This document shows, one piece after another, positions 40,071-56,900 of a stretch of 64,000 nt of DNA. The DNA is from Candidatus Latescibacterota bacterium. Its GTDB lineage: Bacteria; Latescibacterota; UBA2968; GCA-2709665. The stretch spans positions 832,001 through 896,000 of the forward strand of contig OZ250150.1 of assembly GCA_965237675.1 (NCBI GenBank). Reading direction: 5' to 3'. The notes under the pieces were generated by a model. That model saw only the letters and a program-made list of their open reading frames with translations. It ran no database searches and had not been told where the DNA came from. A program made the translations under genes and the position numbers. Position 1 is the first letter of the stretch. Every line of letters starts with the position of its first letter.

Positions 40071-40112
40071 TGCTATTTCTCCAACTTACGTATTTGCCGT
40101 CGTAAAAAGGCG

Positions 40113-40303
40113 GTAAGAGGGAAGACGGTAGACGGTAGAAAATCGGGTAGAGGTAAGAGGCAAGAGGGGAGAGGTGGTGGTAACTTTGCCAAATGACACT
40201 CCCGCATCGAGAGACTCGCCGAGAGACAGCTAAAGGAGACTTTACCGGGAGCGAGACCGGTGGGGTGGTGTGGCCCTCTTACTTCTCACGTCTTACGTCT
40301 TCC
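40113..40303. repeat. Inverted blocks of degenerate heptamer repeats
   Basis: GTAAGAG/GGAAGAC/GGTAGAC units at ~40113-40170; complementary CTCTTAC/TTCTCAC/GTCTTAC/GTCTTCC units at ~40275-40303. Confidence 0.45.
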
Positions 40304-40489
40304 CGCCTTTTTTAGAATATCGGCCAGAACCTGGGGAAGGCAAGGACAAAAAACGGGGGGCGCAGGGTATTCGCGTTGATTTTTTCAGCCGGGCACATTA
40401 GATTGCGGCACCCCTGCGCCCGTACCTATCTTCTTCACCCGGGAAACAGGGCGCACGCGGATGTACATCTTCGAGAAAGTGAGAGTATA

Positions 40490-41887
40490 TTGGCTTCCCG
40501 GAAGACAAACGTCGTGTTTATATTAACGGATGACCAGGGGGTCTGGGCGGCGGGGTGCTACGGCAATCCCGAGATCCGTACGCCCAGTATCGACCGGATC
40601 GCGGACACCGGCGTGCGGTTCGAGAATTTTTTCGTGGCATCGCCAGTCTGTTCGCCCAGCCGTGCGTCGTTCTTGACGGGACGCATTCCTTCCCAGCATG
40701 GCGTCCACGATTGGATCAGAAATGGAAACGTGGGGCCGGATGCGGCTTCCTACCTGGCGGGAGAGGTGGCGTACACGGATGTGCTGGCGGAACACGGATG
40801 GACGTGCGGGATCAGCGGCAAGTGGCATCTGGGCAATAGCCGGATTCCGCAGCATGGGTTCGAGCACTGGTTTGTGCATCAACGGGGCGGCGGAAAATAC
40901 AACGATGCGCCGATGGTGCGGGACGGCAGGCTGATTACGGCGCCCGGATATGTGACCAACGTGATTACCGACGACGCGCTGGCATTCATCGACCGGCATG
41001 CGAACAACGATGACCCGTTCTACCTCGGCGTGCACTATACCGCGCCGCACAGTCCGTGGACGGGGCATCCGCAGGACGTCGTGGATTCCTACGAGGACTG
41101 CGCGTTTGCGTCGTGCCCGCAGGAGCCCCGGCATCCCTGGGCCATCGGGTTGACGGATCAATGTCTGGGCAACCGGGAAAAGTTGAAGGGATATTTCGCC
41201 GCCGTGACGGCAATGGACACCGCCGTGGGAAGGATTCTGGACAGGCTGGAGGCGCACGGCATTCGGGAACAGACACTGGTCGTCTTCGTCAGCGATAACG
41301 GGTTCAGTTGCGGGCACCACGGGTTCTGGGGCAAAGGGAACGGCACGCGTCCCCTGAACATGTACGAGAATTCCGTCAAGGTTCCGGCCGTGATGAGCCA
41401 TCCGGGACGAATTCCGGAAGGATTCGTACAGCCCGCGATGGTGAGCGCGTATGACTTTATGCCGACGCTTCTCGATTACCTGGACCTGCCGCTTCCGGAC
41501 GGACGAAATCTGCCGGGAAGGAGTTTCCTTCCCGCGTTGCTCGGCCGCGGAGATTCCGGCCGGGAATTCGTGGTCATTTACGACGAATACGGCCCCACCA
41601 GAATGGTGCGGACTGCGGATTGGAAATACGTTCACCGGTACATGGGAGGGCCGAACGAACTCTACGACCTGGTAAACGATGGGAATGAACGCGAGAATCG
41701 GGTGGGAGATGCCGGGCAGGCGTCGCGGGTTTCGGAGATGAGGGCAGTGCTGGAGGATTGGTTTTCGATCTATGCGGACCCGGAGAAAGACGGACGCGAG
41801 AGGGCCGTTACGGGCGGCGGACAACTGCGGCCGGTCGGAGGAGATTGGGAGGATGGCCGGGCCGCGTTCAATGAGAAGATCCCTTAG
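40490..41887 (+). CDS. Sulfatase (Cys-type, formylglycine-dependent)
   Basis: LTDDQG, CSPSRASFLTG, GKWHLG and SDNG motifs; probable TTG start. Confidence 0.92.
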   Translation: MASRKTNVVFILTDDQGVWAAGCYGNPEIRTPSIDRIADTGVRFENFFVASPVCSPSRASFLTGRIPSQHGVHDWIRNGNVGPDAASYLAGEVAYTDVLAEHGWTCGISGKWHLGNSRIPQHGFEHWFVHQRGGGKYNDAPMVRDGRLITAPGYVTNVITDDALAFIDRHANNDDPFYLGVHYTAPHSPWTGHPQDVVDSYEDCAFASCPQEPRHPWAIGLTDQCLGNREKLKGYFAAVTAMDTAVGRILDRLEAHGIREQTLVVFVSDNGFSCGHHGFWGKGNGTRPLNMYENSVKVPAVMSHPGRIPEGFVQPAMVSAYDFMPTLLDYLDLPLPDGRNLPGRSFLPALLGRGDSGREFVVIYDEYGPTRMVRTADWKYVHRYMGGPNELYDLVNDGNERENRVGDAGQASRVSEMRAVLEDWFSIYADPEKDGRERAVTGGGQLRPVGGDWEDGRAAFNEKIP

Positions 41888-41979
41888 CCGGTACTCACGC
41901 CCGACGCGTGCCGGGGGGCCGGACCGGTCGGCGGTAAGCCGGCTCGATTGTCAAAAATTGTAAGCGCGAGGAGTAACCC

Positions 41980-43614
41980 ATGAACGTTGCAGACGTGGTG
42001 GCCCATATATTGAAGGCAGAGGGCGTGGAATATTTATTCGCTTATCCGGTAAATCCGCTCATCGAGGCCGCGGCGAAGGTGGACATCCGGCCGATTCTCG
42101 TCCGCCAGGAACGGATTGGCCTTCATATGGCCGATGCGTTGAGCCGCATGACATCGGGAAAACAGATCGGCGTCTTCTGTATGCAGAGCGGTCCGGGGTC
42201 GGAGAATGCGTTCGGCGGTGTCGCCCAGGCATATGGGGATTCGGCGCCGATCCTGGTGCTACCGATGGGTTATTCCAGGAAGCTGACCAATGTCCAGCCG
42301 AATTTCAACTCCGCGCTGAATTACCGGCATGTCACGAAGCTTTCCGAACAGGTCATCCTTCCGGAGACCGTTCCGGAGGTCATGCGACGGGCATTTACGC
42401 AGGTTCGAAACGGACGCCCCCGTCCTGTGCTGGTGGAGTTTCCAACCGACGTTTTCGACGAGGAGGTCCCCGGACCGTTTGACTACCGTCCCGTTCCTGC
42501 ATTGAGAACCGGTCCCGATCCGGACGCGGTTACCGTGGCGGCAACCATGTTGCTGGACGCGCAGAGGCCCGTAATTTACGCGGGGCAGGGCGTCCACTAC
42601 GCCGAGGCGTGGGAGTCCCTGCGGGATCTCGCGGAACTCCTTGAGGCGCCGGTCACCACCAGTCTCGGCGGGAAGAGCGCGTTTCCGGAGAACCATCCGC
42701 TTTCTCTTGGCTCCGGCGGCAGGTCCATTCCGGGCACGGTTCACCGGTTCCTGCAAGAGTCGGATCTGATTTTCGGGATCGGCTGCAGTTTCTCGCGCAC
42801 CCATTTCGGGGTGTCCATCCCCGAGGGCAAGACGGTTGTCCATGCGACACTGGATGCGGGGGACATCAACAAGGACGTGGAAGTCGAGCACGCCCTGCTG
42901 GGGGATGCAAAGCTCATCCTGGAAGCCGTGACGGCGGAGATTCGAGAACGGCTGGGCGGCCGGCCACGTGGACGGACGGAACAGGTGGCGCGGGAGATTG
43001 CCGCGGTCAAACGCGAGTGGCTCTCTCACTGGATGCCGAAACTGACGCTGGACGAGGCGCCGCTATCGCCGTATCGGGTAATTCGGGACCTGATGCGGAC
43101 GGTGGACGTGCCCAATACGATCATCACCCACGATGCCGGCAGCCCGAGAGATCAGCTTTCTCCGTTCTGGGAATCGCAGACGCCGCTCTCCTACATCGGC
43201 TGGGGAAAGACGACCCAACTCGGCTACGGGCTGGGTCTGGCGATGGGCGCCAAGCTCGCCAGACCGGACAAGCTCTGTATAAACGTATGGGGCGATGCCG
43301 CTATCGGATTTACAGGTATGGATTTTGAAACGGCGGTTCGCGAGCGGATTCCAATTCTCTCGGTACTATTCAACAATTTCAGTATGGCCATCGAACTGCC
43401 GGTGATGCCCGTCTCCACGGAAAAATACCGCAGCACGGATATTTCCGGGCACTATGCGGACATGGCGAAGGCATTCGGAGGCTACGGAGAACGCGTGGAA
43501 TCCCCGGACGACATCGTGCCCGCCATCATGCGGGGAATCCGGAAGACGGAGGAAGGCGTACCTGCGCTGCTGGAGTTCATCACGGCGAAGGAAATCGAGT
43601 TTTCGCTCTTCTGA
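41980..43614 (+). CDS. Thiamine pyrophosphate-requiring enzyme (acetolactate synthase-like)
   Basis: RQER, SGPG and WGDAA...NN motifs. Confidence 0.9.
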   Translation: MNVADVVAHILKAEGVEYLFAYPVNPLIEAAAKVDIRPILVRQERIGLHMADALSRMTSGKQIGVFCMQSGPGSENAFGGVAQAYGDSAPILVLPMGYSRKLTNVQPNFNSALNYRHVTKLSEQVILPETVPEVMRRAFTQVRNGRPRPVLVEFPTDVFDEEVPGPFDYRPVPALRTGPDPDAVTVAATMLLDAQRPVIYAGQGVHYAEAWESLRDLAELLEAPVTTSLGGKSAFPENHPLSLGSGGRSIPGTVHRFLQESDLIFGIGCSFSRTHFGVSIPEGKTVVHATLDAGDINKDVEVEHALLGDAKLILEAVTAEIRERLGGRPRGRTEQVAREIAAVKREWLSHWMPKLTLDEAPLSPYRVIRDLMRTVDVPNTIITHDAGSPRDQLSPFWESQTPLSYIGWGKTTQLGYGLGLAMGAKLARPDKLCINVWGDAAIGFTGMDFETAVRERIPILSVLFNNFSMAIELPVMPVSTEKYRSTDISGHYADMAKAFGGYGERVESPDDIVPAIMRGIRKTEEGVPALLEFITAKEIEFSLF

Positions 43615-43707
43615 TCGCGTCAGCTGAATCGACCACTCCTTCTCCGGCGAAACGCGAATCCGTTGCGCCTTTCAACATCGGTTACATAATCAGACAGGAG
43701 CATTTTG

Positions 43708-44250
43708 ATGGGACGTACAGGAATTTTCGCCTTGGCGGTCCTAATTGGTTTCATGCTGTCCTGTGGTGACGACAAACCCACGGAGCCGGTCCACGAAATG
43801 GTTGGGTTGTGGACCTACCAGGGATCCGAATTCAGTGCCACGGCAGCCAGAAACCTGCAGAGTTACATGGTGAATCAGGGCCTGGACCTGACGGCCGCGG
43901 TGCGCCTGGTCGCTGAATTCAGGAATGAGATGAGTAGCGGCTTCCGGGAAACGGGATTGGAGATCGTGCGATTCAATCAGGACCGAACCTACGAAGATAA
44001 TTCCGGCAATTCGGGAGTCTGGTCGGTTCAGGGCGACGTCCTCACGTTGGCAGGCGAAGACGGGTTTACCATTCAATGCCAGTACTTTGTGGACGGCGAA
44101 GACCTGACGCTCCTCCTGAACAAGGAGCGGTACCTGAACATCGTCAGGCAGGCGGAGGGTACGGTTGAGATTGACCCGGAACTACAGACGCTTCTCGATA
44201 TTTTGTTTGGTGACGGAGACTCAATACGACTCTTCTATAGGGCCGGATAG
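43708..44250 (+). CDS. Lipoprotein with a lipocalin-like domain
   Basis: Lipobox-like MLSC; VGLW and G.WSV.GD.L motifs. Confidence 0.75.
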   Translation: MGRTGIFALAVLIGFMLSCGDDKPTEPVHEMVGLWTYQGSEFSATAARNLQSYMVNQGLDLTAAVRLVAEFRNEMSSGFRETGLEIVRFNQDRTYEDNSGNSGVWSVQGDVLTLAGEDGFTIQCQYFVDGEDLTLLLNKERYLNIVRQAEGTVEIDPELQTLLDILFGDGDSIRLFYRAG

Positions 44251-44324
44251 CGGGCGGAAATTTTCGTGCACCTGGCAAGTCCGGGCGCGAAGCTGATATT
44301 GCGACACAGACAGAGGGCGTCCTG

Positions 44325-44540
44325 ATGGGCCGGGTATCGGTTTTCGGCTTGGCGGTCCTTATTGGTTTCGTGATGTCCTGTGGTGACGACAAACCCACGG
44401 AGCCGGTTCACGAAGGGGTTGGATCCTGGACTTACCAGCGATCCGAATTCAGTGCCACGGCAGCGACAAACCTGCAGAATTACCTGGTGGGCCAGGGCCT
44501 AGCCTATATACCCCCTGGGCTGATCGCCCGGCGGGTATAG
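44325..44540 (+). pseudogene. Truncated tandem paralogue of the lipoprotein
   Basis: The first ~59 codons are highly similar to the 43708 gene; similarity ends abruptly at ~44500. Confidence 0.8.
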
Positions 44541-44967
44541 GCGCATCAGTGGCGCACACAGACCCAATGGGCACCCTACTTGTTATCACTATAATGCGTT
44601 ACAGCCATTAAAAGAAATCACTGTTCATGATAATCATGATCCCGGAGAGTGGAATCAGCCTGAAATTGAAATTTACTATTACAACAATTCCGTTTCCTCG
44701 ACACCTCGTTTTATTCTTGAAGATCTTAATGTAATTGATTCATTATATACCGAATGGAGTGATGAAAGAGTCCACGGCACATGTTATAAAAAATTAGATA
44801 AGTTACAAGTTTGGGAGGCGGATACCTGGAACAGTGATGACAATGTGGCATTTTGGACGGATACTCAGCTTAGCACAAATCGAGACATAAATCTTCTACC
44901 TGGTGACGCGGACAGTGAAGAAGATGACGCTACGGTAAAAATTCGACAAACAAATGAAAATCTGTAG
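44524..44967 (+). pseudogene. Headless 147-codon frame (C-terminal gene remnant, possibly C2-like)
   Basis: Open from the TGA at 44521 to the TAG at 44967 with no early start codon; contains LQVWEADTWNSDD. Absent from the ORF track. Confidence 0.5.
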
Positions 44968-45126
44968 TATCAAATTTGCCCAGGGGGGACCCTGTTCCCC
45001 CGGGAAGGTCCGTTCAGGAGGCGTCTCTGACGGGCTTTTAGTTGCGCTCGAAAAATTTGCGAAATCTTTCGGGCAATGGACAAGGCCCATTGGTAGGGGA
45101 TTTTTTACATGAAGGGAAGGTCTTAG

Positions 45127-45963
45127 ATGGACCGATTTGCATTGTTGGAGAGAAAATTACGGTATCAGAAATGGGCGATTATTGTATTGGCCGCTTTATT
45201 TCTATTCACAAGTATTCCGGTCAAGAGCACGATTCATTCAAGGATAGTTTCTGGTAAGCCAACAGTGGCGCAAATGCCAGAAGATACGTTAAGAATTTCG
45301 GTATTAGAAATCATAAATTCAGCAGGAACGCCGGTCCTTGTTTTATCTTCTGATGTTGCCGGTAATGGCTCATTACAATGGTATGATCATCAAAAAATCC
45401 GTGTTGACGCCCTGGGGGTGGGGGATGGGGAGAATAGACTCATAACTGAATTGACTCTCTTTGATTTTGAGGGTGATCCCGCAATTGCCCTAAATTCCAG
45501 AGAACGCACTTATGGTAGTTCGATAGGTGTGTTTAGCAAAAAAGGATTTGACGTAGAAGGAGAGTTTGCGGTCGCGGGTATGGGAAACTTGGATGGAGTT
45601 TTTGGATTTTCCACCTTTGGGGAACGGCAAGGCCGCGACTTTTCATCAACACTTATGGGTGACTTTACTAATGAAGAAGACCCCACAAGTCTTATAGGGT
45701 CTCTCGACGATAATGAAACATTCACTGGTTTTTGGAATCAGGGTGGAAAAGATGCACAATTTCGGGTCATGAATAGTAAAGGAAAAGCTGTTGTCTTGGC
45801 GGGTTTGGATAGTATGGGAGACGGTTATTTAAAAACCTTCGATAGTGATAGTAAACCAACCTGGGAATCAAACAGTGCGCCAGGGGATCTGGATGGTGAC
45901 GGAGACGTAGATTTTAATGATTTTGTGATATTTGCCAAAATCTTTGGGTCTGGATCCAAATGA
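45127..45963 (+). CDS. Membrane-anchored beta-rich protein with a single C-terminal EF-hand/dockerin-like motif
   Basis: N-terminal TM helix; GDLDGDGDVDFNDFVIFAKIFG. Confidence 0.75.
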   Translation: MDRFALLERKLRYQKWAIIVLAALFLFTSIPVKSTIHSRIVSGKPTVAQMPEDTLRISVLEIINSAGTPVLVLSSDVAGNGSLQWYDHQKIRVDALGVGDGENRLITELTLFDFEGDPAIALNSRERTYGSSIGVFSKKGFDVEGEFAVAGMGNLDGVFGFSTFGERQGRDFSSTLMGDFTNEEDPTSLIGSLDDNETFTGFWNQGGKDAQFRVMNSKGKAVVLAGLDSMGDGYLKTFDSDSKPTWESNSAPGDLDGDGDVDFNDFVIFAKIFGSGSK

Positions 45964-45983
45964 TACCCACAACCAATTAAACA

Positions 45984-46020
45984 AGCCCGGGCGGGGCGAA
46001 CCTGCCTGGGCTCTTTTATT
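45984..46020 (+). terminator. Intrinsic terminator
   Basis: AGCCCGGGCGGG-gcgaa-CCTGCCTGGGCT stem followed by a T-rich tail. Confidence 0.65.
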
Positions 46021-46127
46021 TAGCTTCTAAGATCGGACAACGGCGGACCGGCCCGGGGTTTACTAAGGGAATTATAACCCAAAGTGACATGGGTTATGGT
46101 TCCTTTTTTTTGTTAAAGGAGGTTATC

Positions 46128-46385
46128 ATGAAGGTGTACTGGTGGCAAGGCGGTGTATTTTTTCATCCTGAGTCGGACTATGATTGTGATGCTTTACTGG
46201 CGCTGACCAGGGATGTACTTCCTGTTTTTTTCAAGGGCTCGGAGGTTATTTCAATGACTGGCCTTGATGAGAAAGCGATAGATGACAATTGGATTCATAA
46301 TGAGGATTCTGTTTGGAGGAAAGAGGTGGTCAAAGAGGCGGCCAAACTGGCGGCTAAGAAGGCGGCTACTCAGAATCAGGCATGA
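46128..46385 (+). CDS. Small hypothetical passenger protein (85 aa)
   Basis: Strong RBS AAGGAGG; MKVYWWQGGVFFHPE. Confidence 0.65.
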   Translation: MKVYWWQGGVFFHPESDYDCDALLALTRDVLPVFFKGSEVISMTGLDEKAIDDNWIHNEDSVWRKEVVKEAAKLAAKKAATQNQA

Positions 46386-46617
46386 GGTTGAGGTGTACGC
46401 TTGAATTCAGGTATAGCGGACAGATCAGTACTCTGTCAACGTCTTCGTCGAAGTGATGTTCGATGAGATTATATACTTCGCGGGCGGTTTTGATGGGCGT
46501 CTGTATCACCCACTGAGATCGAAGAACTCGTTTGGCTCCTAATTCTTCGAGTTCTTTGTTTAGTGCTGGTCGGTCTCTGTAATCTGATCTCAGGTCATAG
46601 CTTATGAGGAATTTCAT
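46366..46617 (-). CDS. Stand-alone Cas2/VapD-like ferredoxin-fold protein
   Basis: FLISYDL...L..LG.KRVLRSQW...D.DRVLI; 83 aa. Confidence 0.65.
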   Translation of the reverse strand: MKFLISYDLRSDYRDRPALNKELEELGAKRVLRSQWVIQTPIKTAREVYNLIEHHFDEDVDRVLICPLYLNSSVHLNLMPDSE

Positions 46618-46672
46618 GGTGCGTCGTCCTTCCGGAAGGGTGGATTCCTTACAAATAAGTTACATTTTGTCC

Positions 46673-46726
46673 TTGACAGACAACCTTTAAATCGTTATCT
46701 TTAAAGTAGATAAAGCGATTTAAAGG
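46673..46726 (+). promoter_or_regulatory. Sigma70-like transposase promoter embedded in an inverted repeat
   Basis: TTGACA (46673)-N17-TATCTT; perfect 11-bp IR at 46684-46694/46716-46726. Confidence 0.55.
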
Positions 46727-46735
46727 GGGCTTGAG

Positions 46736-47689
46736 ATGGGACAGAAAGGACCAGAGGGACCGGGGAAAAACTACCGGAAGGGTATTTCCCTGAAGAAGCT
46801 GTTCAAGATGTTTCCGGACGACGAGACGGCGCGTATGTGGTTCGAGAAGGCGAGGTGGCCTGATGGTCCTCAGTGTCCATATTGTCGTTCTCATAACGTC
46901 CAGTCGAACGTCAGGCACAAGACCATGACCCACAGATGCCGGGATTGCGAAAAGAAGCCGTTCTTTTCCGTGAAGGTTGGTACGGTGATGCAGTCCTCGA
47001 AGTTGGGGTACCAAACGTGGGCGATTGCAATTTACCTTTTCACGACGAATATCAAAGGCGTTTCGTCAATGAAGCTTCACAGGGATCTGGATATTGCCCA
47101 GAAGAATGCATGGCACCTTGCGCATCGTATCAGAAAGGCGTATGATAATGCAGGGGACTTCTTCTCCGGCCCCGTAGAGGTCGACGAGACGTATATCGGC
47201 GGGAAGGAGAAGAACAAGCATGTGTCGAAGAAGCTGAGGGCGGGGCGCGGTACCGTTGGCAAGACGGCGGTGGTAGGGGCGAAGGACCGGGAGACGGGCC
47301 GTATTGACGCTGAGGTTGCTGCGGCTGTTGACGGCAAGACGCTGAAGCAGTTTGTGTACGACAGGGTGGAACCTGGCGCGAAGGTGTTTACGGACGAGGC
47401 AACAGCGTACCAGGGGTTGTCAGGCGTTCACCACAAGCAGGTGAAGCACAGTGTGGGGGAGTACGTGAACGGCCAGGCATCCACGAATGGTATGGAAAGT
47501 TTCTGGAGTTTGCTTAAGCGGTCGTACCACGGAGTCTACCATCACCTGAGCGTGAAGCACCTGAATCGGTACATTTCTGAGTTCGCAGGCCGCCACAATG
47601 CCCGCGAGGCCGATACCATTGTCCAGATGGCGTGGATCGCCAGGGACATGGTCGGCAAGCGGCTTAAATACGAGGAGTTGGTGGGATAA
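46736..47689 (+). CDS. IS1595 family transposase
   Basis: Zn ribbon CPYC...CRDC, HTH, VEVDETYIGG, FTDE and TNGMESFW motifs. Confidence 0.95.
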   Translation: MGQKGPEGPGKNYRKGISLKKLFKMFPDDETARMWFEKARWPDGPQCPYCRSHNVQSNVRHKTMTHRCRDCEKKPFFSVKVGTVMQSSKLGYQTWAIAIYLFTTNIKGVSSMKLHRDLDIAQKNAWHLAHRIRKAYDNAGDFFSGPVEVDETYIGGKEKNKHVSKKLRAGRGTVGKTAVVGAKDRETGRIDAEVAAAVDGKTLKQFVYDRVEPGAKVFTDEATAYQGLSGVHHKQVKHSVGEYVNGQASTNGMESFWSLLKRSYHGVYHHLSVKHLNRYISEFAGRHNAREADTIVQMAWIARDMVGKRLKYEELVG

Positions 47690-47691
47690 GG

Positions 47692-47726
47692 AAAAGCCAC
47701 CTTTTGTAGGTGAAAAGGTGGCTTTT
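47692..47726. terminator. Bidirectional terminator-like hairpin
   Basis: Perfect 14-bp IR AAAAGCCACCTTTT / AAAAGGTGGCTTTT between convergent genes. Confidence 0.75.
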
Positions 47727-47754
47727 GCAAGATCCCTACTCTATTGTTTGTTCG

Positions 47755-48372
47755 TTAATGGGGTTTTGTTATTCCTCTAAAAGCTGCGCTCAAGTAAAAT
47801 ACTCCGGATATTGTAGCATATTGGAGTTGTTGCCAAAACGTAGGTGAACTTACATGAGAATTGGTTCTTGATCGCAATGGGAAGAGTACTATCTTTTTAG
47901 CGGCTTGATATGCTAAAAGCGACGATACGAAAATGGTAGAGCAAAAGATCGAAGTCTTAATAACGTGTAACTTCATTTGCATAATCGTATTATCATACGT
48001 ATCCAACAAGAGGTCTTGATTCTCAGTTGACAAGTCACTTGATTTCTGTTGCAATAATTCCTTCAGTTCTACTGTAGCCTCACGTTCTTCTTTATATGAA
48101 GCAAGACCGTTAAAAAACGATATTTTTGCGGCTTCTTGATTGACAATTTGAATAAGGCTCATTACTAAGCTATAAGCCTCATGATTTACTGTTACAGATA
48201 CGTCTTCCGACCATTTTCGTGTTAATTCAGATTCAAGTTTGGCTAAATTATGTCGAAGTCGGTCAATACAATAATCACGCCATAGGGTCAAATAGCCTAC
48301 GACAACGAAGAGTATTGCAAAAGCTGTCTTAATGACATCGAACGTCATATCTGTTTGATTCATTGAGTTCAC
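47755..48372 (-). CDS. Hypothetical membrane passenger protein (205 aa)
   Basis: AT-rich ORF with two hydrophobic segments. Confidence 0.6.
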   Translation of the reverse strand: MNSMNQTDMTFDVIKTAFAILFVVVGYLTLWRDYCIDRLRHNLAKLESELTRKWSEDVSVTVNHEAYSLVMSLIQIVNQEAAKISFFNGLASYKEEREATVELKELLQQKSSDLSTENQDLLLDTYDNTIMQMKLHVIKTSIFCSTIFVSSLLAYQAAKKIVLFPLRSRTNSHVSSPTFWQQLQYATISGVFYLSAAFRGITKPH

Positions 48373-48375
48373 CGT

Positions 48376-48597
48376 TTAATTCTTAATGCGTTCTTTTTCT
48401 CTTTTACGCAGGCCTCTTTGAAGTAATCCGTAGATTGCGCCACAGAGTGCCGGTACGGTGCAGGCTAACCAGCGAGTTAAATTCGCTTCCAGACTCGCCA
48501 AAAGTTGAAGATGGATCTCGGTCTCAACGCTCCTAAAGACCATATATGTGCAAAAGCAAACAGTAAAGCAGATCACTATGCATCTAAGGTCACTCAA
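48376..48597 (-). CDS. Small 2-TM passenger protein
   Basis: RBS AAGGAGG, TTG start, two hydrophobic helices and a basic tail; 3 bp upstream of the 205-aa gene. Confidence 0.55.
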   Translation of the reverse strand: MSDLRCIVICFTVCFCTYMVFRSVETEIHLQLLASLEANLTRWLACTVPALCGAIYGLLQRGLRKREKERIKN

Positions 48598-48816
48598 CGT
48601 AACGCCTCCTTACTCGTCTTATGTGGCAAATTTAACAAAAAGACCTGACGAGTCAAGGAATAATTCGAAGGTTCCTGCTTATTCACCTATGGAGGTTGTT
48701 ATATTGGGCCGCCCGCCCGACATTACGGAATTGCATAGACAACAGACGGCGGGAATATAACATTTCCGATTGACAAGATGCAAGAAATTTCTGGATTATT
48801 TCACAGGGGGCATAGC

Positions 48817-48996
48817 ATGGACAAGGCGAGAAAGCCACGGATGGAGATTATGCAGATGATTGAGCGTGTGAGGGACGGCGAGGATGCCGAGGAGGTCATT
48901 GCGGGAAGGAAGCCGGGGAAGGAGAAAAACGGCGATCCTGACGGCCTGGACGAACGCCTGGAGCGGTTTCTGGGGGACTTTCGTAGAATGCGGTAG
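48817..48996 (+). CDS. Small charged passenger protein (59 aa)
   Basis: RBS AGGGGG; TTGACA at 48770 upstream. Confidence 0.5.
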   Translation: MDKARKPRMEIMQMIERVRDGEDAEEVIAGRKPGKEKNGDPDGLDERLERFLGDFRRMR

Positions 48997-48998
48997 GT

Positions 48999-49616
48999 TT
49001 AAACTACGGGGCGTTTAGACAGGTCTAATGTAGTGGGTAGTCTCATGGGTGTTAGGTCATCCTCACGTGAATTTAAAAAAGTAATAGATTTGTAATAATC
49101 GTCCAATGGGATAAACACGCCATTTTGCTCTACCCAAGCTCGCATTGCACGATGGCAGCTTTGAATCCAAGACAGGAGTTCAATCTTCCAACCCATATTA
49201 TGTATTCGTTCAATATTACGATAAAAACCATGTCCCTCGGAATATCCGGCACCGTCACCTGTTAATACTACCATAGTACTTGGGGCGTGATCGGCGGCAT
49301 CCTCCAGCATACGCAACTGTAAATATTGGTCGGTTGTCTCCTGTTCTCCACTTTCACGAGAACCTCGGTCATATAAATGAACCTTGATGCCCTGATTTTC
49401 TAGGCTATTCCATAACTGTCGCATTTCAGGTGGAATAGAACCGGCTGCCCATGCTTTTTCCACTGGCCTATCGGCATGCGCCAATCGAAACAAATTTTCA
49501 AATTTCAAGCGTACGCGATAATATGAGGCAGGTTCATTACCGTTCTTGATCTCTGCCAATTGTTGCACTTGATAGAAAATATTGGAGTTGTCCCAATAAA
49601 TAAACACTTTGTCCAT
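48999..49616 (-). CDS. NYN-domain (PIN-like) protein
   Basis: IYWDNSN, EQE.TD and VLTGDG motifs; own promoter TTGACA-N17-TATTTT at 49666-49638. Confidence 0.85.
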   Translation of the reverse strand: MDKVFIYWDNSNIFYQVQQLAEIKNGNEPASYYRVRLKFENLFRLAHADRPVEKAWAAGSIPPEMRQLWNSLENQGIKVHLYDRGSRESGEQETTDQYLQLRMLEDAADHAPSTMVVLTGDGAGYSEGHGFYRNIERIHNMGWKIELLSWIQSCHRAMRAWVEQNGVFIPLDDYYKSITFLNSREDDLTPMRLPTTLDLSKRPVV

Positions 49617-49706
49617 TGTATGCTCCTTTCGGGTGGCAAAATACAAAAGTGCGCCGCGTATGTCAATACGCGCGGCGAAAAAAGATAATTGACTTGGGAG
49701 GTCGCA

Positions 49707-49823
49707 ATGGGTTCCGAGGAATCAAAGCCGAAGCGGAAGGCAAGGGCCGCGAAGACTGAGTATCAGCCTGCGGAAGAATCTGTGAGTCCGGAGGATGTGG
49801 CGCAGGCATTGTTTCCCGGATGA
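49707..49823 (+). CDS. 38-aa microprotein (EYQP...SPE motif)
   Basis: RBS GGGAGG; MGSEESKPKRKARAAKTEYQPAEESVSPEDVAQALFPG; below the ORF-track cutoff. Confidence 0.5.
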   Translation: MGSEESKPKRKARAAKTEYQPAEESVSPEDVAQALFPG

Positions 49824-49868
49824 TCCGCCACTGGTGGAATCCGGCAAGGGAAAAGAGACAAAGAAGGC

Positions 49869-50315
49869 ATGGAAGGCGTGGCTGAAGCGTTAGCGGGAGC
49901 GGCGAGTGTCTATCGAAAGAACGGTATGAGAATACTTCCTCGGATGCTGGACGTTAAGCAGATTGGACACGGTGAAGAATATACGATTTCTTGTGTGGAC
50001 TGCCGCACAATACTCTTTGATTCCACTAAGTCCGGGCCAGTCAATAGCGTGGGCATCTTGGTTCGCGCACCTTGCGATTGTGATCCCGACAAAGAGAAAG
50101 AAGAGTCGCCAGAAAAACAAAACAAAAGACTCACAATGCCGGTGGTCGTCCTTTTGATTTTCGTGATGCTGTTTCTCTCGTATGGTGTATACGTGTCGCA
50201 CAATAGATATTACGTCGTAAAGTCAGGACAACACACCGCGTACAAGGTGGATCGTTTCACCGGCGAAGCGTGGTTTCTTGCCCCGCACCCAAACAGGACG
50301 CGAAAAATCAAGTAA
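49869..50315 (+). CDS. Hypothetical passenger protein with Cys motifs and a TM helix
   Basis: CVDC...PCDC, TM helix, C-terminal YKVDRFTGEAW. Confidence 0.55.
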   Translation: MEGVAEALAGAASVYRKNGMRILPRMLDVKQIGHGEEYTISCVDCRTILFDSTKSGPVNSVGILVRAPCDCDPDKEKEESPEKQNKRLTMPVVVLLIFVMLFLSYGVYVSHNRYYVVKSGQHTAYKVDRFTGEAWFLAPHPNRTRKIK

Positions 50316-50342
50316 TACCTATGTACGCATCTTCTGTTTACC

Positions 50343-50648
50343 TTGTTACAAGGATCGGCAAGAGTGAAATACATACCCATCATAATGTCAATTGGTGTTA
50401 CTTTAGTTGCGGGTATCATACAATTGTGGATAATGGTGTCGGTGCTTGCGGATTGGATCGGGAGCATGATACTTGCGTTGATTATCGCATTCATGTGTAC
50501 GTGGGCTGTTCCACTTCCGTGGTTTGTGTTTACGTATTGGATTCTTGAGGGGCACTTCCTGTGGGTTTATATGGTCGCCTGGGTGGTTGGTTGGGGGGCG
50601 CAAATATTCTTGGGAATCTTGGTAAACCGGTTCAGAAGCGGAGGTTGA
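50343..50648 (+). CDS. Small multi-TM passenger protein
   Basis: About 3 hydrophobic helices; start uncertain. Confidence 0.5.
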   Translation: MLQGSARVKYIPIIMSIGVTLVAGIIQLWIMVSVLADWIGSMILALIIAFMCTWAVPLPWFVFTYWILEGHFLWVYMVAWVVGWGAQIFLGILVNRFRSGG

Positions 50649-50649
50649 A

Positions 50650-50829
50650 ATGAGCGCTAACGATGATCGGAAGAAGAAACCGGTTGTGGAGGTAGCGAGG
50701 AGCGAGTATCAGCCTACGAAGGAGGAGATGGAGGAGGAGGTGGTGATTGACGCCAGCCCGGAGGAATTGCTACGGGTAGTCGTGCGGGAGGTGGACTTGA
50801 AGCTGATTAATCCGAAGAAGGAAGATTGA
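50650..50829 (+). CDS. 59-aa microprotein (EYQP...SPE motif)
   Basis: RBS GGAGG; MSANDDRKKKPVVEVARSEYQPTKEEMEEEVVIDASPEELLRVVVREVDLKLINPKKED. Confidence 0.65.
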   Translation: MSANDDRKKKPVVEVARSEYQPTKEEMEEEVVIDASPEELLRVVVREVDLKLINPKKED

Positions 50830-50833
50830 GGGA

Positions 50834-51124
50834 TTAGTCTTTCTCCAACTGATTGCCGCAATGATAGCAGAAGCCGGTATAGTTGAGGTGTTCGTCCAGA
50901 TAATCATGCTTCATGGACTCTATGTCTTCATCAGGAATTACGTCAATGTCATATTTATCACTGAGGTTTTCTCTTAGCGTGTCTTCCTTGAATATATCTT
51001 CAGGGCATCTTGCGCATTGTACGACAGCGCCCAATTCACCATACATCAGGTCGGCGTCGGCACCACCTTTTTGCGCGATTTCCAAAAATTCTTCGTACGT
51101 ATCAGGCAAGAATCCATTTTCCAT
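50834..51124 (-). CDS. Acidic 96-aa protein with CxxC...CxxC (Zn-binding)
   Basis: CARC and CYHC; promoter TTGACA-N17-TACTTT at 51197-51169. Confidence 0.65.
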   Translation of the reverse strand: MENGFLPDTYEEFLEIAQKGGADADLMYGELGAVVQCARCPEDIFKEDTLRENLSDKYDIDVIPDEDIESMKHDYLDEHLNYTGFCYHCGNQLEKD

Positions 51125-51323
51125 GTCTGTCTCCCGGTTGTCTTTGTGATGAGTTTTCTGTTTCTGGAAAAGTACGTGATGCAGTCCATTTTGTCAATCG
51201 TAAATATATAAATAAACGTCAGCGCGGCGTAATGTCACTTTCGGTAATAATTCCCTTTACTAAGGTTTGTGCCTGGTTGCCCGGCACAGGGCTTAGAAGA
51301 TGTCTCAGGGTTGCTTTACTGCC

Positions 51324-51663
51324 TCAGCGAATTCTCTTAGGTAGTTGCACAGGCCCTTGCCCTGGTTCAACCACTTTTTCTTTCTCAAGACATTCTGACT
51401 CATTTACCTTGCGCCATTCTTTAATGAACATACTTGTGTATTTATCGACCATGCGTAGGATAAATTTATTTCTTCGCCCATGCACACCAACAACGCCTAT
51501 TCGCCAAGTGACGGCATATTCCTTCATCCCGGAGTAGTTATCCAACACAATTTTCCGTAATTCAATTCCAATGCTGAAAGCGGTTTTGGATGTATTGACC
51601 TGGACGTATAGGATAGGGTGTATGTCCTCTGTTTCACTAACCACAAATTTTCTGGGCACATAG
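51324..51663 (-). pseudogene. C-terminal gene fragment truncated by IS1380
   Basis: The protein-like frame (LYVQVN...TW.IG..G.HG...FI.EW.KVNE.EC) runs into the IS end. Confidence 0.55.
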
Positions 51664-53361
51664 TCTGAATAATTCACAAAAAAGGTAGTTTCCATACCCA
51701 AGTCATTGTATTATATTATGGTTAGACGAATAACCTTAACACAATGAATCGGGAGGAAACTACCGTGGAGATTCAAGATAAACATCACAGGGTGTCTTTC
51801 GCAAGTCTTTTGGGCAAACAGGTAGAAGCCGCGTTCGATGGGGGTATCCTGACCAGCGACAGCGGGGTGATGCTGATACGGGAGGTGGAGGCCAAGATCG
51901 GCATTTTGCGGCGGATCATTGAGGCCTTAACGGATCCTCGGCATCCCAGTTATGTGGATCACTCATTGGCGGACCTGGTCAGTCAGCGTGTTTTTCAGAT
52001 GGCGTGTGGGTATGAGGATGCGAACGATTGCAATGCGTTGCGCACGGACCCGGGCTTCAAGGCGGCCTGTGATCGGTTGCCGTCCACCGGTGCGGCGCTG
52101 GCCAGTCAACCCACGATGAGTCGGTTCGAGAACCGGATCAACAGAGGCGACCTATATCGGATCGCGAAGGCCTTTGCCGACGGGTTTATCGCCTCGTATA
52201 AGAAACCGCCCAAAGCCATCCTGCTGGATATCGACGATACGGAAGATAAGGTGTATGGTTCTGGGCAGTTGTCGTTATTCAATGCGTATTTTAAGAGTCA
52301 TTGCTACCAGCCGTTGCATATCTATGAAGGGCAAACCGGCAAGTTGATCACGACGGTTTTGCGTCCTGGCGCGCGGCCTTCGGGCAAACAGATCGTTTCG
52401 ATTCTCAAACGGGTGATCGCCTACCTGCGTCGCGCCTGGCCCCATGTGGCGATCCTGTTGCGTGGCGATTCTCATTTTTCGTGTCCGGAAGTACACGCGT
52501 TGTGTGACACACAGAATGTGTATTTTGCCCTTGGACAAAGCGGCAATGCCAAGTTGCTGCCCAGGGCACAGCCCTTGATGGACCAGGCCAAAGCGCTGTA
52601 TGCCGCTTCCGGCAAAACCGTACGCCTATATAACGCGTGGAACTATCAGGCCAGCACCTGGGCTTCGCCACGCCGCATCATCTGTAAGGCGGAAGTGACA
52701 CCGCAAGGACACAATATCCGTTTCGTGGCCACCAACCTGAAACGCGCCAAACCTTCATTCATCTACAAAACCGTCTATTGTGGACGCGGCAGGATGGAAG
52801 GCTTCATCAAGAATCACAAGACCTTTCTCCATTCTGATCGTACCTCTTGTCACACCTTCGAGGCCAATCACTTCCGGCTCTTTCTCCACAGCGCCGCCTA
52901 TGTCCTGTTGCAGACCTTGGCTGAAATTGGATTGCGCGGCACCACGTGGACGAACGCCCAGGTTAATACGTTGCAAAATCGCCTCTTGAAGGTCGCCGGA
53001 CGCGTTTGTGAGATGAAAACCAAAATCACGTTCCATCTGCCAACGGCGTTTCCACTCAAACACCTCTATGGCAAGATCCTTTACAATCTGGCATCGTCCG
53101 TTCCATAACGCATCGTCCGGTTGCATCCGCCGTCACGTCTTGCTCGACACCACCAAAACCCAGGCACACGTCTGTGCTTTTGACCGGGGCATCAAGGTCA
53201 ACCTGACTCCACCGCCCTACCGTGTTACCAGCAGGTGCCACTGAAGCGGCTCGAAAACACCAAATCCGTCACAGCCGGCTTTTCTTCCGTTTCTCAATTC
53301 ACTCGGTAGCTGGTTCTGCTTCCTGAAACTGCAATCCGTGACGATTCATGAATTAATCGGG
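51664..53361 (+). mobile_element. IS1380 family insertion sequence
   Basis: Imperfect TIRs TCTGAATAATTCACAAA / CCCGATTAATTCATGAA (12/17); no clear TSD. Confidence 0.7.
51744..53108 (+). CDS. IS1380 family transposase (DDE_Tnp_1_4)
   Basis: FDGG.LTSDSG, GYEDAND, ASQPTMSR, LDIDDT, RGDSHF and Y..RG.ME..IK motifs. Confidence 0.95.
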   Translation: MNREETTVEIQDKHHRVSFASLLGKQVEAAFDGGILTSDSGVMLIREVEAKIGILRRIIEALTDPRHPSYVDHSLADLVSQRVFQMACGYEDANDCNALRTDPGFKAACDRLPSTGAALASQPTMSRFENRINRGDLYRIAKAFADGFIASYKKPPKAILLDIDDTEDKVYGSGQLSLFNAYFKSHCYQPLHIYEGQTGKLITTVLRPGARPSGKQIVSILKRVIAYLRRAWPHVAILLRGDSHFSCPEVHALCDTQNVYFALGQSGNAKLLPRAQPLMDQAKALYAASGKTVRLYNAWNYQASTWASPRRIICKAEVTPQGHNIRFVATNLKRAKPSFIYKTVYCGRGRMEGFIKNHKTFLHSDRTSCHTFEANHFRLFLHSAAYVLLQTLAEIGLRGTTWTNAQVNTLQNRLLKVAGRVCEMKTKITFHLPTAFPLKHLYGKILYNLASSVP

Positions 53362-53930
53362 CAAGATACGTTCCCGGATACATTTGTGCCAATGTTTATC
53401 AGAATCCGAATGTGGGACACCTGGCGAAAAATCAGCCCATAGACCGTGTTGAATGGTCGTTGTCGACCACAGCGTCCCGGCGGCAATCGCCTTCGTGCCC
53501 GAAAAATAGGTACCCGGGGCGGGATCGATGGGGGTTTGGAATGGAGTGAGGGAGGGGTTCTTCAACAGGTCGAGATTTATCCATGGCGCGGATCCGCATC
53601 CCAGAGCGTGGCCCATCTCGCGCAGAAAGACGGCATCAATCAAGCTGCCCGAGTACACGCTCAGGTAGCCCGGGTCAGATTCGATTATGCATGCATACGT
53701 CAGCGAGAAAGGGTCCTGGCTTCGTATGTGCATCGTACCTGTGATGCCGCTGAACTAGTTGCGCTGCCGGCTGAACCGGGATCCACAAGGATCTCAGTAC
53801 CGATCACATGAAAGGAAGCGGCGGCCGTATTTCCGGACAACGCCGTATACGTCAGCAGGTCCCTTTCTGGCTGCTGAACACGCCGCCTGCGGACACGTTC
53901 TCGACGGCACCGTCCCACCGTCCTCGAACA
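53362..53930 (-). pseudogene. Eroded leishmanolysin-like (M8) metallopeptidase remnant
   Basis: AVFLREMGHALG (HExxH degenerated), LLKNPS, D.HW; Ig-like fragment DLLTYTALS in another frame. Confidence 0.55.
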
Positions 53931-53935
53931 CCTGA

Positions 53936-56900
53936 CTAAAGCTCGTTCACGACAATTTCATTGTCCGTGCCGCCAATAACCTCGTACTTCATCGGCGCAT
54001 TCAATGCTCCACTTGCGTTCAGGGTGATCTTCCCCTGCCCCGAGGTTTGCACGCGGATTCCGATCCTGGCGGCCGTGATACTCCCGGTGTGGGTAATCGT
54101 GATATCCCCGCCCTGGCTCACCACGTCGATACCTATGCTGGGAGCTTCGGTGACGCCCTCAGGGGCGCCGATGTCGCCGCTGTTCCAGACCACGACGTCG
54201 CCTATACGGTAGACGTTCTTACAAACGATGTCCGGGTCCACCGGATCGCCTGCCGCCGTCTCACATCCCGGTCCAGGAACATCCCCACCCATCCCAGCAA
54301 TTGATATTCCCGCCGAGTACGAAGATTCCGCATTCGTCGAGTACTTGTTCGTCGCCAAGATATTCCCGGTGTTGAATACCTTGATCTCGCCGCCGCGGTA
54401 ATGCTCGGCGCGAATACCGTGGGCCGCCTCGCCGTCCGTGCTGATCGTACCGGTATTTTCCACATGAACGCCATCGTGCTCCGATGTGTCCGGGTAGTCT
54501 GGAATGTCGGGGTACGAAGTGTCATCGAGATCTCTGTCGTTATCGTATCCGTAAGCATATATGCCGTGGCTCCATTTTCCCTCCGTATCGATCGTCCCCT
54601 GGTTGATCGCGAAGACCCGGCCGGACATCGAACTCCTGGCGATGATTCCATATCCGTGGCGGTGTCTCCGTGTGTCGTCCGTGCGTGTCGTCGCCCTCGT
54701 GGTGATGGAGGCGTCACTGTAGTTCCTCGCGTAGACATCGCCCGGCACGTTGCTGGTCCGGTCGGGGACGATCTCATCCAGGTTCCCGTGGCAACCGTTG
54801 TTCTCGAACGGCCACGGCGCGCAGTTCCCCGTGTGCAGGCCTATCGCGTACAGACCGTTGATTTCGATTGAGCCGAAGTTGAGACCCTGTGACGCTCCCC
54901 AGAGACTCTGAGCCGAGATCCCGCGCGCGCCCTCTCCTTCAATCCGGATCTGGCCTTCCGCATAGTTGACCAGTCGTGTGAGATGTCCGCTTCCAGTCTC
55001 GCACTTAAGACCGTCAACTCGCTTGTTGTAGGGACCGGTAGCAATGAGTTGGCCGCCGGGCATGTTGAACAACTCGACCTTGTGGCTGTAGTTCGAGAAG
55101 TCATGGGGCTCCGCCGCCTTGTTGAGGCCCCCGACCACAAGACGATGGTTGGATTGAGCCAAGTCCGGCGCGGTGGTGAGGCCGTTCAGTGTGATTTCTC
55201 CGTCGTTCACGAGGAGTATGTTGGCGGGGGAGGCCTTCATCACCGCGCGGATGCCGATGCCCGCGCTATCGAGAGTTACGGAGCCTTGGTTCAGGATCCA
55301 AAGGTTCCCGGTGTTGCCTTCCGTTGTGATGTTGGCCGCGACGCTTCCTCTTGCAGTTACCTCGGCGCTGTCGCCGATCGTGATCGCGTGGTACTCGGAA
55401 CCCGCGTTCTTGTTGGTGATGTTGATCCCTGCAGTACCGGTTGCCGGCTCGAGCGTTCCGTCGTCGTATTCGACGTGGGTGCGGTTATGATCGCCGGGAT
55501 CGAGCGTACTGGTGTGGTCGCCACTATAGGCGTGAGTCACCGGTTGACCGAAGCGATGGTCCTCATCCGGAGCCGCCGTGAAGACCGGAGTCGAGGAAGG
55601 AACAATCGACGCGGGGAGGATCGTGCCGTAGACCTGATCGGACCATGGGCCCTTCCCTTCGTCGTTCTCCGCCTGCACCTGAATCCGGCAGATCCTGCCC
55701 GAGCTCAAGCCGGTGATCGTGCGAGACCGGGTGGGACCGGTCTCGTGCCAATTGCTGAAGGCGCCGCTGGCGCCTTCCCTGTACTGCACGTAATAGTTCG
55801 TGATGTCGGGACCTTGGTTTTCTGGCGCATCCCAGCTCACGGTCAGGCTGCTCTCCGTCTCGCCGCTCACCGTGGGCGGGTCGGGCTTGCCCGGCGGTTC
55901 GACGTCATCCTTCACGAGGACGACGACCGTCTTGGTGCCCGGCATTTCGCGGGTGCCGCTGCCGCCGGTCGCCTCCACCACCACGCTGTAGTCGTTGTTG
56001 CTCCCTGCATCCGCGGGAGTCTCAAAGTCGGGATCCTCCTTAAAACGCAGCTGGTTCGTGCTCGCGATCTCGAACAGGTCCCCGTCTGCGGCGCCGGTGA
56101 CAGCGTATCCGGTAATGGCATCACCGGCATCGACGTCCTGGGCCACCATTAGTCCGGCGAACCGGGTGTTCTCGGTGACCTTGAAGGTGTCTTCAATGGT
56201 GAAAACCGGCGGCTCGTTCTCGTCCGTGACATTGACGGTAACGGTCTGCGCGGCGGTTAGTGCGCGACCGCCGGAACCGCCGGTGGCGGTGACCTCCACG
56301 ACGTAGCTGTTGTTGCTTCCCGCGTCCACGGGACGCTCGAAGTCGGGGTCATCCCTGAACGTCAGCGCGCCGGTGTTGCTGATTTCGAGCCTGCTGCGGT
56401 CGCTGCCGCCGGTCAGGGTGTAGTCTGTGATGGCATCGCCCTGGTCCAGGTCGTCGGCACTGACCCTGCCGGCGAAGGACTGGTTCTCCGTCGCCTCGAG
56501 CGTCGGCTCGCCGGTGAACACGGGCGCCTCGTTCAGATCGGTCAGATCGATGGACACGGGGATGCTGCCCTCGCCGCCGTGGCCGTCGGTGGCTTTGACA
56601 TTGACCGAATAGCGCGACAAGGCCTCAAAGTCGTAGGTCCTGCCTGATCTGGTTTTAAGCTGACCGCTACGCGTGTCTATCGAGAAGGAGTCCGCGTGCG
56701 TGCCTTCAAGGGCGTACGTCAGCGGGGTCATCTCGGGGTCCGTGGCGCCCACCGGATCGCCTATGTCCTTCACGCCCGTGGTGTTCTCCGCCACGGTGCG
56801 TGTCGCGCCGAGCCCGTCAGTGAATGTTGGCAACTGATTGGGATCGGTGCTTCCCGTGCCCGATTCCGACCAGTCGCTCGTGCCTTCTGGCGAGCGCGCC

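Follow-up and report, generated by a model that had tools for sequence, protein, structure and literature searches.

The locus described here raises a simple question: when a small insertion sequence (IS) carries far more genes than its transposase, which of these genes belong to the IS itself and which only travel with it? The sequence in question is a 64-kb stretch (hereafter the window, 64,000 nucleotides, G000:C1:832001-896000) of the genome of a Candidatus Latescibacterota bacterium, in which a first-pass annotation had recognized a 5.2-kb element of the IS1595 family, recently inserted, with about ten passenger open reading frames (ORFs) on both sides of the transposase gene, and had proposed that it transports defence- or toxin-like genes. 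Following up this proposal, we consider it very probable that we are dealing with an autonomous IS1595-family transporter IS (tIS), in which a 59-amino-acid (aa) microprotein is encoded by a second core gene and to which hitchhiking cargo has been added. A tIS with passengers is already a known kind of element, and the window copy is a new, unusually large example of it.

Direct reading of the window sequence places the element at 46067-51255 (5189 bp). It begins with the left terminal inverted repeat (IRL, 46067-46090, plus strand, GGGAATTATAACCCAAAGTGACAT), which starts GGGAATTAT, and ends with the right one (IRR, 51232-51255, minus strand, GGGAATTATTACCGAAAGTGACAT when read on the opposite strand); the two match at 22 of 24 positions, with mismatches at positions 10 and 14, and IRR was recovered by sequence reading, by an inverted-repeat search and by a scan for the terminal inverted repeat (TIR) pattern. 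On both sides stands the octamer TTTACTAA (46059-46066 and 51256-51263), an exact 8/8 target-site duplication, so that the TIRs and the duplication first described can be read directly in the letters. The inverted-repeat search ranked the IRL/IRR pair, reaching into the duplication, as the top inverted repeat of the region (26 nt, 92%). A degenerate TIR pattern, with up to three mismatches allowed, found in the window nothing but IRL and IRR, and in 100 dinucleotide shuffles nothing at all; genome-wide it matched five places, and the reversed control pattern none. Contigs from public runs of two studies (X1 and X2) span both junctions of the element with 0 differences, and its structure is therefore not the artefact of one assembly. 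The GC content is 46.9% in the element, about 44.5% in the immediate flanks and 58.2% in the genome, the element and its flanks both looking foreign, and ranges from 37% to 59% among the genes inside.

The transposase gene (46736-47689, plus strand) is open and encodes an intact DDE transposase of 317 aa which fills 954 of the 5189 bp (18%), in agreement with the earlier estimate of less than 20%. The protein matches the IS1595 catalytic domain PF12762 (E-value 4.9e-40, 137.5 bits for a cut-off of 27), the zinc ribbon PF12760 at residues 27-73 (2.5e-08, 34.2 bits for a cut-off of 25.4) and the NCBIfam model transpos_IS1595 (1.7e-53, 181.7 bits for a cut-off of 75). In an alignment with 11 relatives, D150, D220, E254 and K261 are invariant, as are the zinc-ribbon cysteines C47, C50 and C68, and C73 is at least 90% conserved; the catalytic domain covers residues 144-288. 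The features of the IS1595 family, namely the catalytic domain, the N-terminal zinc ribbon and the TIRs with their 8-bp duplication, are all present. An imperfect palindrome of 20 nt (46684-46726, 80% complementary, 3 nt between the arms) lies just 5' of the start codon in the divergent promoter region, and a perfect, terminator-like hairpin of 14 nt (47692-47726, plus strand, 100% complementary) directly follows the stop codon. The IS1595 transposases annotated in plasmid records are at most 45% identical to that of the window.

IS copies that carry passenger genes are recognized as a category of their own, the tIS, which is described as restricted to the IS1595 and IS66 families, both of which have such forms (10.1101/2021.05.26.445724), and which is also treated in PMC3129680 and PMC9330008. 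Two of them, tISCpe8 and MTnSag1 (tISSag10), resemble the window element in having one IS1595-type DDE transposase, TIRs of about 25 bp (25 bp as described in PMC5704250), 8-bp repeats, AT-rich targets and internal passengers; for MTnSag1 the same source describes a circular intermediate. They measure 1.7-2.0 kb and carry one lincosamide-resistance gene, whereas the window element has 5.2 kb and about eleven ORFs besides the transposase gene, none of them a resistance gene; among them is a conserved terminal microprotein gene. Passenger genes lie between its TIRs as expected of a tIS, among them genes for an NYN-domain protein and for a zinc-ribbon membrane protein. Its ends are of the GGnnATTAT type, which may place it in the ISNwi1 subgroup of IS1595. 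In this subgroup such ends go together with 8-bp repeats, and the members that carry passengers measure about 1.7-4.7 kb, a range that the 5189 bp of the window element and relatives of up to 9817 bp would exceed.

Such relatives were delimited in two sets. The set from the bacterium's own order comprises 20 loci, namely the window, a sibling element described below, and 18 stretches that surround homologs in 41 related genomes. Of these loci, 14 have a GGGRATTAT-type TIR pair matching at 18 or more of 24 positions together with a perfect 8-bp duplication; at one further locus the transposase gene is broken and the duplication is 7/8, another shows a TIR pair but no duplication, and four stayed unbounded, the elements measuring 2263-9817 bp. 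A second set, from named genomes, consists of the best 80 of 562 confirmed relatives (51-64% identity); the same ends bound 42 of these loci (1351-7754 bp), with an 8/8 duplication in 40 and a 7/8 duplication in two. After removal of one duplicate, the pooled set holds 57 elements of 1351-9817 bp (median 2804 bp), of which the window element is the sixth largest. The ends of all 57 start with GGGRATTAT, and the duplicated octamers of the relatives are mostly AT-rich. Homologous transposases bounded by closer, different TIRs, named at the first reading as a sign that would overturn the element, occur in none of the 57, within a scan limited to ends with an ATTAT core. Gene families were defined by clustering the ORFs of at least 35 aa of these elements.

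In a quick transposase tree, from which the locus L059 was left out because its transposase gene is broken, the window protein groups with that of the sibling (support 97) and with that of L044 (support 99), and L113 stands elsewhere. The tree mixes phyla, rows titled Acidobacteriota, Binatia and Gammaproteobacteria falling into one clade with a support of 99. The best 80 relatives all come from metagenome-assembled genomes, two of which have titles with sponge-derived names.

The clustering singled out the 59-aa microprotein (50650-50829, plus strand, motif SxYQPTKxEMEE...DASPEEL), whose family is present in 21 of the 57 elements and shows a basic N-terminus followed by SxYQP(S/T)KAE(L/M)EE and then by DA(S/T)PE(E/D)L. 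Three more families of the same size (50-70 aa) and design add 14, 3 and 3 elements, for a total of 41 of 57. In 28 elements the gene is on the transposase strand with its stop codon at most 80 bp from the right end, and of the six smallest elements, four (1351, 1492, 1531 and 1762 bp) have the microprotein as the only extra ORF family found. From these positions it follows that elements of the lineage are built, from left to right, of IRL, transposase gene, cargo bay, microprotein gene and IRR. Within the family the pairwise differences at codon positions 1, 2 and 3 are 0.54, 0.42 and 0.67, the third position varying most as in coding sequence, in a protein-guided alignment that itself favours this pattern. 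The 59-aa microprotein thus looks like a conserved accessory gene of the IS lineage and not like cargo.

What such an accessory protein might do is suggested by structure prediction. Models of the complex between the transposase and the microprotein scored 0.73 in three runs, when the best of three controls reached 0.02; 58 of 80 solved complexes score this high, as do 2 of 110 mismatched pairs, counts that hold only roughly here because the analysis used its own alignments. The runs had at least 82% of contacts in common, and the microprotein had a pLDDT (predicted local distance difference test) of at least 73. In the modelled interface, residues 11-50 of the microprotein, including the invariant Y20 and the at least 90% conserved P22, face residues 35-40 and 79-141 of the transposase, a stretch with many invariant residues, situated for the most part between zinc ribbon and catalytic domain. 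The prediction supports binding of the microprotein to the N-terminal region of the transposase. In IS66 (TnpA/TnpB) and IS1 (InsA) the transposase works with a small accessory protein encoded in the IS. The likeness lies in this small extra protein; no sequence relation is known, and the gene of the window lineage is at the far end, 3' of the cargo.

The most serious competitor of this account, which we nevertheless consider unlikely, is that the microprotein is no partner of the transposase but a passenger, such as an antitoxin or a small regulator of cargo, or that the conservation reflects DNA sites near the right end. The microprotein matches no known family in PADLOC and profile searches, copies of it exist away from transposase genes, an ORF with the same C-terminal motif precedes a chromosomal NYN paralog, and the binding comes from a model. 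Against this, elements in which the microprotein is the sole extra ORF family have little cargo to regulate, the codon-position pattern is that of coding sequence, and in the modelled interface lie the conserved Y20 and P22 as well as invariant transposase residues, the controls scoring 0.00-0.02. In the ESM Atlas the microprotein matched unnamed small-protein clusters alone (scores at most 0.90), and a literature search for an accessory or second ORF of IS1595 returned no relevant paper.

Several microprotein-like sequences were met along the way. The window element contains a second microprotein gene (49707-49893, plus strand), in which one extra G at 49821-49823 shifts the frame where the sibling reads through; the X1 and X2 contigs agree on it with 0 differences, the conserved core stays in frame and the C-terminal extension alone is lost. 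We looked there for a relic right end, as a nested or fused origin of the element would leave it 3' of this gene, and rejected the idea: the DNA similarity to the sibling ends before the stop codon of the gene. A 64%-identical microprotein gene lies away from any transposase gene at G000:C1:4653914-4654081, 3' of a 251-aa gene. About 900 bp from this gene lies a lone TIR-like sequence with three mismatches, and the locus (L025 1995-3160, G000:C1:4652994-4654160) could be a remnant or a non-autonomous derivative. Finally, an 88-aa ORF (L003 2063-2329, G000:C1 at about 4372528-4372794) stands before the chromosomal NYN paralog on the same strand, and ends in a C-terminus (FPxDxPVxKSGKGK...W..W) similar to the C-terminal extension found in the sibling's microprotein, so that NYN genes and this peptide motif may be connected.

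If the microprotein belongs to the IS, what fills the bay? The relatives have 148 candidate cargo ORFs of at least 90 aa, and a Pfam scan covered the 20 largest. A DNA methylase domain occurs in 12 of these proteins, in six of which it is joined to an HNH, Mrr or T5orf172 nuclease domain; the others are one type III restriction subunit, two proteases and five proteins without a match. The largest element, a tIS of 9817 bp present in two copies in one genome (L048 9011-18827 and L049 1565-11381, G026:C1), has among its cargo a 974-aa type III restriction subunit, a DNA methylase of 628 aa and a second methylase-related ORF (208 aa). Judging from these domain matches, the lineage often carries restriction-modification genes; the window copy does not.

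The window copy has a different load. Beyond the hairpin lie, on the minus strand, a 205-aa protein with one N-terminal hydrophobic segment and a GC of 37% (47755-48372), found only in this copy and retrieving itself alone in a word-based homolog search, and, upstream of its gene, a 73-aa hydrophobic protein with one hydrophobic segment and sub-threshold Hok and holin matches (48376-48597). A small protein with an ERVRxGEDA motif (48818-48996, plus strand, ORF open from 48778) has homologs in three of the 57 elements, the window, the sibling (L024) and L059. The NYN-domain protein (48999-49616, minus strand, ORF open from 49646) has 205 aa from its MDKVF start and matches PF01936 at 1.2e-10, above the cut-off, which bears out the nuclease-fold protein of the first-pass annotation. 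Its family comprises 1516 clusters, mostly of about 208 aa, with 56-62% identity among the matches listed; identity reaches 91% and 75% in its two closest relatives, and no sequence relative was found among solved structures (best E-value 0.93). A paralog 60% identical lies in the chromosome beside a deaminase gene (G000:C1:4371885-4372508), and because of the size of the family and this neighbourhood the NYN proteins look like having a conserved cellular function.

Further to the right, a zinc-ribbon protein of 129 aa with a CxxC...CxC pattern and one membrane segment (49926-50315, plus strand) has a gene-sized DNA match of 88% identity in another genome (L075 3440-3861, G004:C67), where the ORF start MRILPRML is shared and the flanks show no similarity. 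That copy stands outside any tIS, next to DarT (1.1e-70), DarG (1.3e-135) and a 425-aa methylase-like ORF, and the confinement of the match to one gene suggests that it may move as a single-gene cassette. In the window the zinc-ribbon gene is followed by that of a 101-aa protein with three hydrophobic segments (50343-50648, plus strand), without a family match in Pfam, PADLOC or NCBIfam, and, beyond the microprotein gene, by that of a very acidic 96-aa protein with an isoelectric point (pI) of 4.1 and a CxxC...CxxC pattern (50834-51124, minus strand), without a family match at threshold. Among the 57 elements the NYN, membrane and zinc genes are confined to the window copy. The first description of about ten passenger ORFs on both sides of the transposase gene, with CxxC proteins, hydrophobic proteins and small ORFs, agrees with what is found there; the word cargo suits the NYN, membrane and zinc genes, and not the 59-aa microprotein, which is conserved in the lineage, nor perhaps a pair of genes at the left end.

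This pair lies between IRL and the transposase gene. ORF1 (46128-46385, plus strand) encodes an acidic protein of 85 aa (pI 5.0) behind an AAGGAGG ribosome site; convergent with it, with an overlap of 20 nt, and divergent from the transposase gene lies a gene for an 83-aa protein with a Cas2 fold (46366-46617, minus strand). Three of the 57 elements have both genes at this left-end place: the window, L059, which is from the same genus and has the broken transposase gene, and L113, from a genome titled Candidatus Binatia; in the last two, ORF1 keeps its N-terminus while codons differ synonymously. Since the pair is present in L059 and L113, and the transposase of L113 stands elsewhere in the tree, either the pair is old and has been lost many times, or elements exchange it. 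By itself the Cas2-like protein falls under the cut-off for PF09827 (E-value 4.7e-4, 20.7 bits for a cut-off of 23.8), a family matched by 34 of 50 aligned members of its own family, and it matches PADLOC Cas2 models down to 6.9e-07. Its AlphaFold2 (AF2) model has a mean pLDDT of 90.1, and the top ranks of a Foldseek search are almost all Cas2 chains, the best being 3exc (TMq 0.70, with a profile match of 1.7e-4). By sequence family and predicted fold it belongs with Cas2, and the Cas2/VapD-like protein recognized at the first reading is in this respect borne out. With the Cas2/VapD ferredoxin-fold small nucleases it shares the beta-alpha-beta-beta-alpha-beta fold and the conserved aspartate that ends strand 1 (LISYDL). 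The Cas2 of CRISPR adaptation is encoded with cas1 beside a CRISPR array, whereas here the gene is flanked by ORF1 and the transposase gene; the element contains no cas1, and the sole PF01867 match of the genome lies about 4.6 Mb off (G000:C1:5498318-5499217), CRISPR arrays not having been searched for. The family is a stand-alone one of about 84 aa with 1120 representatives at E-values up to 0.001. A word-based homolog search returned the query itself alone. We rejected the idea that the family as a whole is tied to IS1595, only two of ten loci adjoining an IS1595 transposase gene in 53 genomes of the order. The ORF1/Cas2-like pair is perhaps a conserved part of the IS lineage.

Does this inventory make the element a dedicated vehicle for defence or toxin genes, with the NYN, Cas2-like and membrane proteins acting against phages or as addiction toxins? 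The Cas2 fold is common to VapD-type toxins, the relatives often carry restriction-modification genes, the sibling has a weakly ParE-like ORF (E-value 0.0074, under the cut-off), and the 88%-identical copy of the zinc-ribbon gene stands beside DarT/DarG. On the other hand, PADLOC applied to 10 proteins of the element matched no defence-system model: it gave Cas2 acquisition models for the Cas2-like protein, weak matches for the 205-aa protein (E-values 0.0025-0.018) and nothing for the other eight, including NYN. The NYN family is widespread and has its chromosomal paralog by a deaminase gene, and Pfam and NCBIfam scans revealed no methylase or restriction gene in the window copy. The defence- or toxin-like cargo first proposed is for this copy not upheld, and we regard the dedicated-vehicle explanation as distinctly unlikely; the idea does better for the lineage than for the window copy.

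The surroundings of the element have their own history. Synteny with the closest congener (G012, contig C4; 99.6% identity) ends at 44500 and returns at 53362, and between these breakpoints G012 has about 9.9 kb of unrelated DNA; the window stretch 44500-53362 is a low-GC (about 44-47%), strain-specific island without counterpart in 14 congeners. At its left border a tandemly repeated domain appears to end, the stretch 43724-44500 being internally repeated and matching G012 at three offsets about 620 nt apart. On the right, a 1.7-kb IS of the IS1380 family (51657-53367, 454-aa transposase, NF033539 at 2.3e-114) truncates the 5' end of a minus-strand ORF (51324-51701); it has more than 20 further places in the genome at 82-96% identity and, according to a search of the genus, many more in congeners. 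Rfam gave no match at the gathering score in window positions 40000-56000.

Whether the lineage moves can be followed more closely in the sibling element (G000:C1:771622-775562, L024 1023-4963). It measures 3941 bp, has TIRs matching at 24/24 positions and the duplication TAAAATAT, encodes a transposase 81% identical to that of the window and interrupts an ORF. In the congener G001 (contig C3) its two flanks abut with a single TAAAATAT and the frame is open (346 aa), a clean empty site of the sibling element. The cargo of the sibling differs from that of the window, with the ParE-like ORF already mentioned and a 293-aa membrane/coiled protein; common to both are the microprotein and the ERVR protein. 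In G026, the two copies of the 9817-bp element have different 8-bp duplications, which suggests that even an element of this size, with its whole load, moves in one piece. For the window element, an empty site with one TTTACTAA, suggested at the first reading as a check, was found joined almost as expected in one contig of run X6 (418 nt, depth 3.14), which connects 46049 to 51260 with 11 letters between them and so drops the element and one repeat; the same run has contigs entering the element at depths of 2.7-4. We take this contig as moderate evidence for a segregating empty allele. The other sign named at the first reading as overturning the element, the lack of an empty-site allele anywhere, is thus likewise not borne out, given this contig and the empty site of the sibling.

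These observations also speak against the element being an immobile fossil, inserted once, its cargo later scrambled and its ends and transposase no longer working together. Such a state would fit the single copy, the frameshifted microprotein paralog, the two differences between IRL and IRR, and the 96-aa gene that, unlike in most relatives, stands between the terminal microprotein gene and IRR. We judge it very unlikely, as the duplication has no mismatch, the transposase gene is open and encodes all residues that are invariant in relatives, relatives with imperfect TIRs (18-23/24) still have perfect duplications, and an apparent empty-site allele accompanies the filled one in run X6. The window element is probably still mobile. 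The recent insertion of the first-pass annotation is probably correct as well, considering the perfect duplication, the intact transposase, the single copy, the low GC and the X6 contig. Still weaker, with a practically negligible probability, is a chance or composite pairing of ends, for example of remnants of two separate IS bracketing unrelated chromosomal genes, which the IS-rich neighbourhood and the IS1380-family copy 400 bp to the right might suggest and which we rejected in view of the identical 8-bp repeats, the 0 of 100 shuffles matching the TIR pattern, the X6 joint that takes out exactly the stretch between the repeats, the single transposase gene inside and the 56 related elements of the same layout.

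Some results weigh against our account of an autonomous tIS with the microprotein as its second core gene. ORF clustering left 16 of the 57 elements without a microprotein, three elements have a family-2 microprotein on the other strand, adjoining the transposase gene, and in the window the stop codon of the microprotein gene is 426 bp from the element end instead of 30-70 bp. The basis of the predicted binding is a model, and the alignment behind the codon-position test leans towards the pattern observed. In the named genomes 38 of 80 loci stayed unbounded; the end scan demanded an ATTAT core and missed elements with other ends, and for this reason these loci are not evidence of absence. The window element is single-copy in its genome, and the TIR search proposed at the first reading, productive in the genome, found with the exact pattern 0 matches in a metagenome contig collection. 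Its empty site was not found in the 14 congeners, which have no counterpart to the strain-specific stretch 44500-53362 as a whole, and the X6 joint is a lone contig of low depth, with a short side of only 30 nt and small indels relative to the expected sequence (11 letters instead of 13).

By analogy with the IS1595 family, the DDE transposase would recognize both 24-bp ends and insert the whole 5189-bp unit into an AT-rich octamer, which gets duplicated. The 59-aa microprotein (50650-50829) would be the second core product of the IS lineage and, by binding the transposase at about residues 35-40 and 79-141, may regulate or assist transposition, and passenger genes would gather in the bay between the transposase gene and the terminal microprotein gene. 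The ORF1/Cas2-fold pair may be a recurrent left-end add-on, possibly a toxin-antitoxin-like module for retention, and the remaining genes (the 73-aa/205-aa membrane pair and those for the ERVR, NYN, zinc-ribbon/membrane, three-segment membrane and acidic zinc proteins) would be private hitchhikers acquired piecemeal. A bolder version, attractive but one on which we would not bet, is that this branch of IS1595 is a two-gene transposon in which the microprotein clamps the N-terminal DNA-binding region of the transposase and controls transposition, that its bay holds mostly methyltransferase genes, with or without a nuclease, in at least six named phyla, that it serves as a shuttle across phyla for restriction-modification genes and other accessory ones, and that the window copy, an unusually loaded member, swapped its methylase for NYN, membrane and zinc genes.

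The tIS are the smallest self-moving gene carriers of bacteria and are rarely annotated as units. In the 57 elements with exact ends, cargo can be seen to enter between the transposase gene and the microprotein gene at the end, and to consist usually of DNA methylases, often fused to nucleases. The mixing of phyla in the transposase tree suggests that these elements move genes between very distant bacteria. In our view the most interesting result is the conserved terminal microprotein, a predicted binder of the transposase, together with the cargo bay which it delimits: if the microprotein does bind the transposase, a large IS family would have an accessory factor of which our literature search found no description, and this can easily be tested.

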